From a virus (lineage: Duplodnaviria; Heunggongvirae; Uroviricota; Caudoviricetes): 6,963 bases of DNA. The notes under the pieces are model-generated. The model was not told the origin of the DNA. It worked only from the letters and a program-made list of their open reading frames with translations, and ran no database searches. The stretch lies in IMG/VR virus record IMGVR_UViG_2740892431_000001; one strand, written 5' to 3'. Position numbers and translations under genes: made by a program. Positions within the stretch are counted from its first letter, which is position 1. The number at the start of each line of letters is the position of its first letter. Below are positions 586 to 6,963 of this stretch, piece after piece.

Positions 586-918
586 TTAAACGATGCTGAT
601 TGCCGTTCCGGCAAACGCGGTCCGTTTTTTCGTCTCGTCGCTGGCAGCCTCCGGCCAGAGCACATCCTCATAACGGAACGTGCCGGACTTGTAGAACGTC
701 AGCGTGGTGCTGGTCTGGTCAGCTGCAACAGCCAGAATGCCAACGGCAGCACCGTCGGTGGTGCCATCCCACGCAACCAGCTTACGGGTGGCGGTGTCAA
801 GCATCAGCGGAGTCATTGCAGGCGCTTTCGCACTCAATCCGCCGGGCGCGGTTGCGGTATGAGCCGGGTCACTGTTGCCCAGCGGCTGGTAATGGGTAAA
901 GGTTTCTTTGCTCGTCAT
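586..918 (-). CDS. D: Head decoration protein gpD (110 aa)
   Basis: ORF 586..924; the likely true start is the second ATG at 918..916 ([12 protein letters not shown]...), with stop TAA at 588..586. The protein is recognisable as lambda gpD, and there are 9 nt between the C stop and the D start as in lambda. Confidence 0.9.
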
Positions 919-927
919 AAACATCCC

Positions 928-1533
928 TTACACTGGTGTGTTCAGCAAATCGTTAACGGCATCAGATGCCGGGTTACCTGCAGCCAGTGGTGCCGGTGCA
1001 CCCTGCATCAGACGATCCAGCGCAGTGTCACTGCGCGCCTGTGCACTCTGTGGTGCTGCGGCCAGAATGCGGCGGGCCGTTTCCACGGTCATTCCGGGGG
1101 TTTCTGCCAGCACGCGCGCCTGTTCTTCGCGTCCGTGAGCCTCCTCACAGTTGAGGATCCCCATAATGCGGCTGTTTTCTGCCGCAACCGCTGCGGTGAT
1201 CTGCGCGTTCACGTCCGGCTGCGCCGCGCTGGCGTTTTCGCCCTCCGTCGCTTGCACCACGTCAGTAACGTCAGCCTGCGAAGCGGTGGCTGAAACAGTT
1301 GTTGATTGAGTCTCTTTGGTCATTCGCCCTCCTGAGAGACGGGATTTACGTGCATCCAGTGCATCACGCATGACGGTGATCGCATCGGTGCTGTTAACAA
1401 GTTCATCAGCCAGTCCGGCATCAATGGCCTCCTGACCGCTGTACACTGCAGCCTCGGTATCCAGCACAGCCTGCACGGACAGGCCGGTATATGCCGACAC
1501 CTTCTGCGCAAACATCCGGCGGGTTGCATCCAT
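928..1533 (-). CDS. Nu3: Capsid scaffolding protein gpNu3 (201 aa), translated from an internal in-frame start within the C reading frame
   Basis: ATG at 1533..1531 gives MDATRRMFAQKVSAYTGLSVQ... through to the shared stop at 930..928. In lambda Nu3 is the in-frame C-terminal part of the C ORF. It lies downstream of all four duplications and so is intact. Confidence 0.8.
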   Translation of the reverse strand: MDATRRMFAQKVSAYTGLSVQAVLDTEAAVYSGQEAIDAGLADELVNSTDAITVMRDALDARKSRLSGGRMTKETQSTTVSATASQADVTDVVQATEGENASAAQPDVNAQITAAVAAENSRIMGILNCEEAHGREEQARVLAETPGMTVETARRILAAAPQSAQARSDTALDRLMQGAPAPLAAGNPASDAVNDLLNTPV

Positions 1534-1729
1534 CCGGGACTGCAGTGTCTCCCGGACGTCATCCGGAAGATGGCTGTAGGGGTTGCCATCCACCTTATGG
1601 CTGCCGCTGTAAATCAGCGTGATTTCCACGCCCTGTTTCTCCAGCGCAGCACCGTAATTACTGTGAGCCATCATGACGCCGATGGAGCCTGTCCGGGCGG
1701 TCTGCGTGACCAGACGCCGGGAGGCGGCA

Positions 1730-1905
1730 CTGGCAAGCAGCTGACCTGCGCTGCAGTTCATGTCATTGGCCAGCGCCCATACCGGCTTTATGTCACGCAC
1801 ACGGGCGATGATGTCAAGCTGGCAAGCAGCTGACCTGCACTGCAGTTCATGTCGTTGGCCAGCGCCCATACCGGTTTTATGTCACGCACACGGGCGATGA
1901 TGTCA
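1730..1905. repeat. Imperfect tandem duplication, 2 x 89 bp
   Basis: Unit at about 1730..1816 is repeated at about 1819..1905 (for example ggcaagcagctgacctgc at 1732 and 1821; gatgatgtca ending at 1816 and 1905). There are 3 mismatches. The period of 89 is not a multiple of 3. Both copies encode DIIARVRDIKPVWALANDMNCSAGQLLAS. Confidence 0.9.
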
Positions 1906-1919
1906 GCGCAGTCAAATGC

Positions 1920-2030
1920 CCCTGCCACCATCCCGCCTGGCGTATCCATATCGAGCAGAATGCCGTCCACCATCATCCCTGCCACCATTCCGCCGGGCGT
2001 GTCCATATCGAGCAGAATGCCGTCCACCAT
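1920..2030. repeat. Imperfect tandem duplication, period 57 bp (in frame, 19 codons)
   Basis: ccctgccaccat...gccgtccaccat at 1920..1973 is repeated at 1977..2030, with 3 mismatches. Both copies encode MVDGILLDMDTPGGMVAG, and ORF 1788..2159 reads ...GGMVAGMMVDGILLDMDTPGGMVAGAFDC... Confidence 0.9.
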
Positions 2031-2095
2031 CGGGTCACTGGCAGCCTGTTGCAGACGGGCGATAATGCCGTTGTAACCGGTCATCCCCGAATAAG

Positions 2096-2223
2096 GCTGC
2101 AGCGCCCGCGTCCGGCTGACCAGCGTACCGGACACCGGCAGCACGGCGATGCCGTTCACGGCTGCAGCGCCCGCGTCCGACTGACCAGCGTGCCGGACAC
2201 CGGCAGCACGGCGATGCCGTTCA
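2096..2223. repeat. Imperfect tandem duplication, 2 x 65 bp
   Basis: gctgcagcgcccgcgtcc begins at 2096 and again at 2161; gcgatgccgttca ends at 2158 and 2223. There are 2 mismatches. The period of 65 is not a multiple of 3. Both copies encode (V)MNGIAVLPVSGTLVSRTRALQP. Confidence 0.9.
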
Positions 2224-2252
2224 TGACCTGATAACTGCGGGCCTGCCGTGAT

Positions 2253-2386
2253 CGTGGTCCGTCGCCATCACCGACTAACGCCAGCGTCGCGGGTGCCTCT
2301 CCGGCAGTCAGGCTGTCACCGTGGTCCGTCATCATCAACGGATAACGCCAGCGCCGCGGGTGCCTCTCCGGCAGTCAGGCTGTCGC
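2253..2386. repeat. Imperfect tandem duplication, 2 x 67 bp, the most diverged pair
   Basis: cgtggtccgtc begins at 2253 and again at 2320; gggtgcctctccggcagtcaggctgtc begins at 2291 and again at 2358. There are about 7 mismatches. The period of 67 is not a multiple of 3. The copies encode DSLTAGEAPATLALVGDGDGPR and DSLTAGEAPAALALSVDDDGPR. Confidence 0.85.
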
Positions 2387-2511
2387 CGGATACCGCATCC
2401 GTCAGGCGGCTGATCCCAAGCTGGCCTGCAAGCGCACAAAAGAAAACCCGCGCATAGGCGGGTTCAAGCATCAGCGGCTCATTAAAGGCCATACTGGTAA
2501 TATGCGGGAGA

Positions 2512-6212
<3,701 letters not shown>

Positions 6213-6238
<26 letters not shown>

Positions 6239-6758
6239 TCAGCAACCCCGGTATCAGTTCATCCAGCGCGGCTGCTTTGTTCATGGCTTTGATGATATCC
6301 CGTTTCAGGAAATCAACATGTCGGTTTTCCAGTTCCGGAAAACGCCGCTGCACCGACAGGGGGATCCCGTCGAGAATACTGGCAATTTCACCTGCGATCC
6401 GCGACAACACGAAAGTACAGAATGCGGTTTCCACCACTTCAGCGGAGTCTCTGGCATTCTTCAGTTCCTGTGCGTCGGCCTGCGCACGCGTAAGTCGGTG
6501 GCGTTCGTACTCAATAGTCCCTGGCTGGAGATCTGCCTCGCTGGCCTGCCGCAGTTCTTCAACCTCCCGGCGCAGCTTTTCGTTCTCAATTTCAGCATCC
6601 CTTTCGGCATACCATTTTATGACGGCGGCAGAGTCATAAAGCACCTCATTACCCTTGCCACCGCCTCGCAGAACGGGCATTCCCTGTTCCTGCCAGTTCT
6701 GAATGGTACGGATACTCGCACCGAAAATGTCAGCCAGCTGCTTTTTGTTGACTTCCAT
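6213..6758 (-). CDS. Nu1: Terminase small subunit gpNu1 (181 aa; cosB-binding subunit)
   Basis: ORF 6213..6758 (MEVNKKQLADIFGASIRTIQNWQEQGMPVLRGGGKGNEVLYDSAAVIKWYAERD...) is recognisable as lambda Nu1. ATG at 6758..6756, stop TAA at 6215..6213. Confidence 0.95.
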
Positions 6759-6894: not shown

Positions 6895-6935
6895 GCCTTA
6901 AACCGGAAAATTTTCATAAATAGCGAAAACCCGCG

Positions 6936-6947
6936 AGGTCGCCGCCC
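6936..6947. other. cosN: cosN: the 12-nt cohesive-end sequence (GGGCGGCGACCT on the minus strand), here joined to right-end sequence
   Basis: Plus strand 6936..6947 is aggtcgccgccc, the reverse complement of the lambda left-end 12-mer. It is followed at 6948..6963 by cgtaacctgtcggatc, which reverse-complements to a sequence ending ...ACAGGTTACG, my recollection of the lambda right terminus. Confidence 0.85.
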
Positions 6948-6963
6948 CGTAACCTGTCGGATC

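Follow-up and report, generated by a model that had tools for sequence, protein, structure and literature searches.

The break in the lambda-type gene C analysed here is very probably a consensus or scaffolding artefact, produced from two nearly identical, co-assembled lambdoid head modules, and the C gene of the underlying, ordinary lambda-type locus is almost certainly intact in the cell. Within a few hundred bases the gene is written as a staircase of short overlapping segments that alternate between two natural C alleles. Each upstream segment ends on a nucleotide that distinguishes the alleles, each join carries the same extra base, and removal of the pieces from the second allele restores a complete gpC.

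The window, by which we mean the whole 6963-base stretch of DNA that was analysed, is a lambda-type module of packaging and head genes read from the minus strand; many Escherichia phages and prophages match it at 97-99.7% identity. It comprises a joined cos site (about 6930-6963), Nu1 (6758..6213), A (6238..4313), W (4316..4110), the portal gene B (2512..4113, 533 aa), the start of C (GTG at 2531), the scaffold gene Nu3 (928..1533, 201 aa), D (918..586) and, from 530, E as far as its codon 176. None of Nu1, A, W, B and D is disrupted, and for each the exact protein is present in natural prophages. Nu3, which has its own ATG at 1533 and lies inside the 3′ part of C in the same frame, is also intact, with exact copies of its protein encoded in four related loci (L008, L013, L002 and L004). 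A preliminary description of this DNA had held that Nu3 was undisturbed and the other head and packaging genes apparently intact, and these protein identities bear it out. The reverse complement of window positions 6930-6963 is GATCCGACAGGTTACG followed by GGGCGGCGACCTCGCGGGTTTTCGC, which we take to be the joined lambda cohesive-end site, with the right end closing in ...AGGTTACG and the left end opening with GGGCGGCGACCT; a joined cos is what an integrated or circular genome should have. As far as the sequence can indicate, the packaging signal beside Nu1 (cosB, up to about 6780) looks intact.

In lambda, gpC is an S49-family prohead protease, and the Nu3 scaffold is nested in frame in the 3′ third of its gene. 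The window shares with lambda the gene order B-C/Nu3-D-E, with C/Nu3 flanked by the portal gene B and the decoration gene D, the 20 nt by which B runs into the start of C, an in-frame nested Nu3 that starts at Met239 of C, and a Peptidase_S49 domain with Ser166 in the motif NDMNCSAGQ. Unlike lambda C, its reading frame is cut by five joins and runs for 71 codons before a stop. The collection has 1634 blocks that list the exact gpB protein, and in 10 of the 10 loci fetched through this protein an intact 439-aa C adjoins the gpB gene.

Read from the GTG at 2531, the C frame yields 71 residues (VTAELRNL...DDDGPR) equal to residues 1-71 of natural gpC and then meets a TGA at 2318..2316 on the minus strand, as had been described. 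The stop lies in the context CCACGG-t-GACAGCC, where the T is the filler base of a junction, at window position 2318, and GA is the start of a re-read segment. No single continuous ORF of about 439 codons runs through the window from the C start to the Nu3 stop. Positions 1730-2378 hold four imperfect tandem duplications, at 1730-1905 (period 89), 1920-2031 (period 57), 2095-2223 (period 65) and 2245-2378 (period 67), whose copies are 87-97% identical and score far beyond chance (TRF scores 203-331). A fifth repeat, at about 2246-2256, consists of 5 nt plus 1 nt and resembles a 6-nt insertion. With the 71-codon frame, the intact neighbours and the four duplications all in place, the original observation is confirmed as a description of the sequence as written.

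Two natural alleles account for the duplicated stretch. We compared every variable site of the C region with nine natural alleles, and we call P1-type the C gene of prophage 1 of E. coli isolate AF3 (NZ_OZ547117.1, at 938 kb) and P2-type the C gene of prophage 2 in the same closed genome (at 5.04 Mb); in this stretch the P2-type allele is identical to those of loci L008, L007 and L002. At 18 of 18 discriminating sites the base in each window segment is that of P1 or that of P2, with a change of haplotype at every back-step. Each discriminating site within the duplicated stretches is P1-type in one copy and P2-type in the other. The patch has one base private to the window among the nine alleles compared, at position 2264 (g on the plus strand, where the others have a), and this is a synonymous third-position change inside a P2-type segment.

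Aligned with natural prophages, the C region resolves into six overlapping colinear segments separated by back-steps, all on the minus strand. Segment E (2319..2531, window position 2319 upward) is P1-type at all discriminating SNPs, supplies the 5′ part of C and extends to L008 position 11795. After the filler at 2318 the sequence steps back 66 nt into segment D1 (2252..2317; L008 11730-11795), which is P2-type at 6 of 6 discriminating sites, contains the private base at 2264 and re-reads C nucleotides 148-213, the 66 nt that segment E already covers. A filler at 2251 and a 5-nt back-step lead into segment D2 (2159..2250; L008 11791-11882), which is P1-type, and a filler at 2158 and a 64-nt back-step lead into segment C (1976..2157; L008 11819-12000), which is P2-type and, together with position 2158, is identical at 183 of 183 bases to both L008 and AF3 prophage 2. 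Segment B (1818..1974; L008 11945-12101) follows a filler at 1975 and a 56-nt back-step; it is P1-type at L008 11975-12000 and P2-type at 12044-12101, so that it contains an internal switch without a back-step. Finally, after a filler at 1817 and an 88-nt back-step, the P1-type segment A (928..1816; L008 12014 onward) provides the rest of C, namely the S49 protease domain with Ser166 and the Nu3 part. Judged by this alignment, the visible duplications are the overlaps of successive segments, and the apparent 6-nt insertion within segment D is the fifth back-step, of 5 nt, with its filler. As a natural indel allele the 6-nt insertion found no counterpart: it is in no complete E. coli genome, where the best full-length match, at 94.5%, is insertion-free. 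A 20-nt pattern in segment D has a sole match, in an unrelated viral contig (L012, IMGVR_UViG_3300048802_000008, positions 2711-2730), which we regard as chance; that match falls inside a 581-aa ORF that, by eye, resembles a GroEL-type chaperonin.

The frame shifts and the TGA stop arise from the filler-bearing joins. They do not, as had been supposed, leave the remainder of C merely as out-of-phase fragments. The segments at 1818-2157 are back in the C-start frame, to which the sequence returns after the second duplication; segment A is offset by 2 relative to that frame. An ORF of 313 aa with an ATG start (1869..928) begins inside segment B, crosses segment A and is in frame with Nu3. It encodes the whole Peptidase_S49 domain, Ser166 included, fused to Nu3, and lacks the N-terminal 144 residues of gpC; PF01343 scores 151.2 bits against it over profile positions 3-151 of 154 (gathering cut-off 24.9). 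No obvious Shine-Dalgarno sequence was seen by eye upstream of this ORF, which is relevant only if the sequence is real.

The junctions obey a simple rule. At five of five joins the last base of the upstream segment is a SNP that discriminates P1 from P2, and it shows the allele of the segment's own haplotype. With 18 discriminating sites in 373 nt, the chance expectation for five ends all on SNPs is about (18/373)^5, or about 3e-7. The filler is A on the plus strand, T in the coding sense, at five of five joins; each join has a single called base, and the window contains no N. Microhomology at the joins is little or none (0-3 nt). The natural base just before the restart is C, C, T, C and C for the joins at 1817, 1975, 2158, 2251 and 2318, respectively. 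The possibility that the filler is a C-to-T change where a segment starts, of the kind left by DNA damage, was considered and rejected: the preceding base is C at only four of the five joins, and the idea is inconsistent with the join between segments B and A, which is better read as an insertion.

When the P2 pieces and the fillers are deleted, a 1320-nt ORF of 439 aa is recovered, and it encodes, residue for residue, the S49 peptidase annotated in AF3 prophage 1. The restored path retains 63 nt that are covered only by the P2-type segment C, and these introduce one synonymous difference from P1. At the DNA level the de-duplicated sequence aligns with AF3 prophage 1 as one ungapped piece at 99.6% identity, and its protein scores 150.3 bits against PF01343 (gathering cut-off 24.9). 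Residue 166 of the restored gpC is the S in NDMNCSAGQ, and the Nu3 start falls at Met239. Ser166 is reportedly the catalytic serine of gpC, and it is the predicted catalytic serine here. The de-duplicated window is a natural mosaic, with a P1-type patch of about 600 bp that runs from the end of B through the first half of C (at about 2319-2611 and 1729-1816) on a backbone that is otherwise almost L008. This arrangement points to short-patch recombination between lambdoid prophages at the mosaic spot.

AF3 shows how two such modules can share a genome. Its two lambdoid prophages have the same Nu1, A, W, D and E proteins and differ at 36 sites over the span of the window, 30 of them within 1 kb around the end of B and the first half of C; we use AF3 as an analogue for two co-occurring alleles, not as a candidate for the source sample. 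Several copies per genome are common: of 5426 complete E. coli genomes, 3272 carry the head module, at 4835 places in all and with up to 6 in one genome. Outside the patch (L008 11503-12101) the window differs from L008 by one mismatch in about 4.3 kb, so that in an assembly two such copies would collapse along their whole length but for this patch.

Searches for the broken form itself returned nothing that shares its structure. Among 3286 matching E. coli records and 93 phage records, the duplicated C stretch had no full-length match; the best matches fell into 5 pieces spanning 617 or 1417 nt. Junction 1, the one junction whose sequence was searched, is absent from IMG/VR, JGI metagenome contigs and GTDB representative genomes. 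Exact-protein look-ups found neither the 313-aa ORF nor a 123-aa ORF on record, and no protein with the 19-aa in-frame duplication was found when the 123-aa ORF was queried against 5.8 billion protein clusters; the matches to that query were just ordinary or frameshifted gpC fragments. Public assemblies, multi-megabase contigs among them, hold many frameshifted or fragmentary gpC proteins (for example P0003, P0007, P0009, P0019 and P0021), and an out-of-frame peptide, GMGAGQRHELQCRSAA, is common to several of them. Some of these proteins may be sequencing indel errors rather than real pseudogenes.

These features can be brought together in one sequence of events. The source sample would have held two near-identical lambda-type head modules, either as two prophages in one genome or as two strains. 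Assembly, scaffolding or polishing would have failed to separate the copies in the SNP-dense patch (~18 sites in ~370 bp), and allele-specific pieces of 66, 92, 182 and 157 nt would have been laid in positional order with their overlaps unmerged. The outcome would be a staircase in the order P1, P2, P1, P2, P1/P2, P1, in which the unmerged overlaps would appear as the 89-, 57-, 65- and 67-nt duplications plus the 6-nt one. Some scaffolders use a single-n spacer, and the constant filler looks rule-based, as if, for example, a spacer character had been turned into the base A. A scaffolder that joins overlapping contigs with a spacer would be one candidate for the kind of software step, and the computational cause itself is inferred from the structure of the sequence. 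Three points sit less easily with an artefact of assembly: paths through standard de Bruijn graphs do not go backwards, segment B switches haplotype without a back-step, and the constant filler is not accounted for.

Similar errors have been described at other scales. Heterotype false duplications arise from alleles that are left unmerged (Ko et al. 2022, PMC9516828). The window resembles them in that its paired copies carry haplotype-specific variants, in that these lie where identical sequence borders on divergent sequence and in the probably false disruption of a gene; the single filler base between its copies may also correspond to the unsupported sequence found in such cases. It differs in that they span kilobases whereas its own scale is tens of bases, in that its 'haplotypes' would be paralogous bacterial prophage copies or strains, and in that its spacer is one called base where theirs is a run of N. 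Scaffolders have also been reported, for SOAPdenovo2, to insert gaps between overlapping contigs (PMC5368935). Here the likeness is that the overlap ends are kept on both sides, which leaves a short direct repeat flanking a spacer; the difference is that the window has no N, so that a conversion of spacer to A would have to be supposed.

The strongest competitor to an assembly artefact, although an improbable one, is a real rearrangement in which replication switched template serially between the C alleles of co-resident prophages, in the manner of MMBIR or FoSTeS, re-annealing tens of bases back each time. Five backward switches would then have left a genuine C pseudogene, with Nu3 and the 313-aa S49-Nu3 ORF remaining and prohead maturation defective, an outcome that we consider just as improbable. 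The segments are indeed pure copies of two natural alleles able to share one genome, back-steps with small junction insertions are the typical product of such switching, and broken C genes do exist in public assemblies. Against this, the process requires five backward switches and one in-line switch within ~370 bp, at joins with 0-3 nt of microhomology, and it leaves unexplained both the placement of five of five breakpoints on SNPs and the constant one-base filler; moreover, the structure is in no related prophage that was searched. The functional prediction would hold under template switching, since C is essential in lambda, where its knock-down lowers the EOP below 2e-7 (PMC10695390, Table 1); gpC is referred to there as a protease through a citation of Medina et al. 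2010.

Very unlikely, too, is the proposal that the window was edited or synthesised, as a constructed or simulated sequence, instead of being the product of an assembler. The regularity of the junctions (a SNP base, a constant filler and a back-step) looks rule-based, and the junction searched occurs in no public record, as would suit a construct, but a simulator would not normally take its variant bases, in phase, from a second genuine allele. On sequence alone, a construct and a pipeline artefact would look alike. Ordinary slippage, with tandem duplications formed in situ in a decaying prophage and diverging later by point mutation, has next to no probability, and the allele table excludes it: four head-to-tail repeat pairs at 87-97% identity superficially resemble old duplications, but the differences between copies are natural allele states with one private base only, up to 13% divergence between copies stands against one mismatch in ~4.3 kb of flanks (against L008) and unchanged neighbouring proteins, four or five independent duplications would have to fall side by side, and the inheritance expected of them is not seen, with no related record or protein carrying a duplication. 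DGR-like or other programmed variation was likewise rejected; the copies differ by transitions and transversions alike, which agree with natural alleles and show no restriction to adenine.

The lesion also looks unlike the decay seen elsewhere among these prophages. The usual damage in the cryptic prophages of K-12 and the like consists of deletions, IS insertions and scattered decay. The window, unlike these, has other genes that match intact natural proteins and a lesion that consists of a second allele; if the sequence were real, it would resemble defective lambdoid prophages in adding one more inactivated essential head gene. Among relatives linked by gpB, some carry damage that looks genuine: L008 has no call for the 341-aa major capsid gene at about 13244-13975, and a break in its alignment with the window falls at 13581; in L005 and L007 transposase genes replace the tape-measure gene (about 17800-20240), and L007 has a split Z gene at 15139-15718. 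Real decay in this family seems to proceed by deletions and IS insertions, which the lesion in the window does not resemble.

The preliminary description had concluded that the locus would be a prophage with a scaffold but no head protease. It had properly made this conditional on the sequence being real, and if it were, the essential role of C means that the prediction of a maturation-defective prophage would stand. Most likely the sequence is not real as written, and the conclusion is therefore probably wrong. Were the sequence real, an ordinary outcome, a defective prophage, would have been reached by an unusual mechanism, and if template switching were the true cause, the window would record a natural bacterial MMBIR-like chromoanasynthesis measured in tens of bases, for which paralogous prophages served as the alternate templates. 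Most likely the broken C is not a real biological feature and has little biological significance. Its value would lie in a caution, that short imperfect tandem duplications in a conserved prophage gene can mark collapsed prophage copies, and in a staircase test that can be reused: assign an allele to each copy, ask whether the breakpoints fall on inter-allele SNPs, and ask whether removal of one allele restores the ORF. Pseudogene or defective-prophage calls that are based on such duplications need read support.
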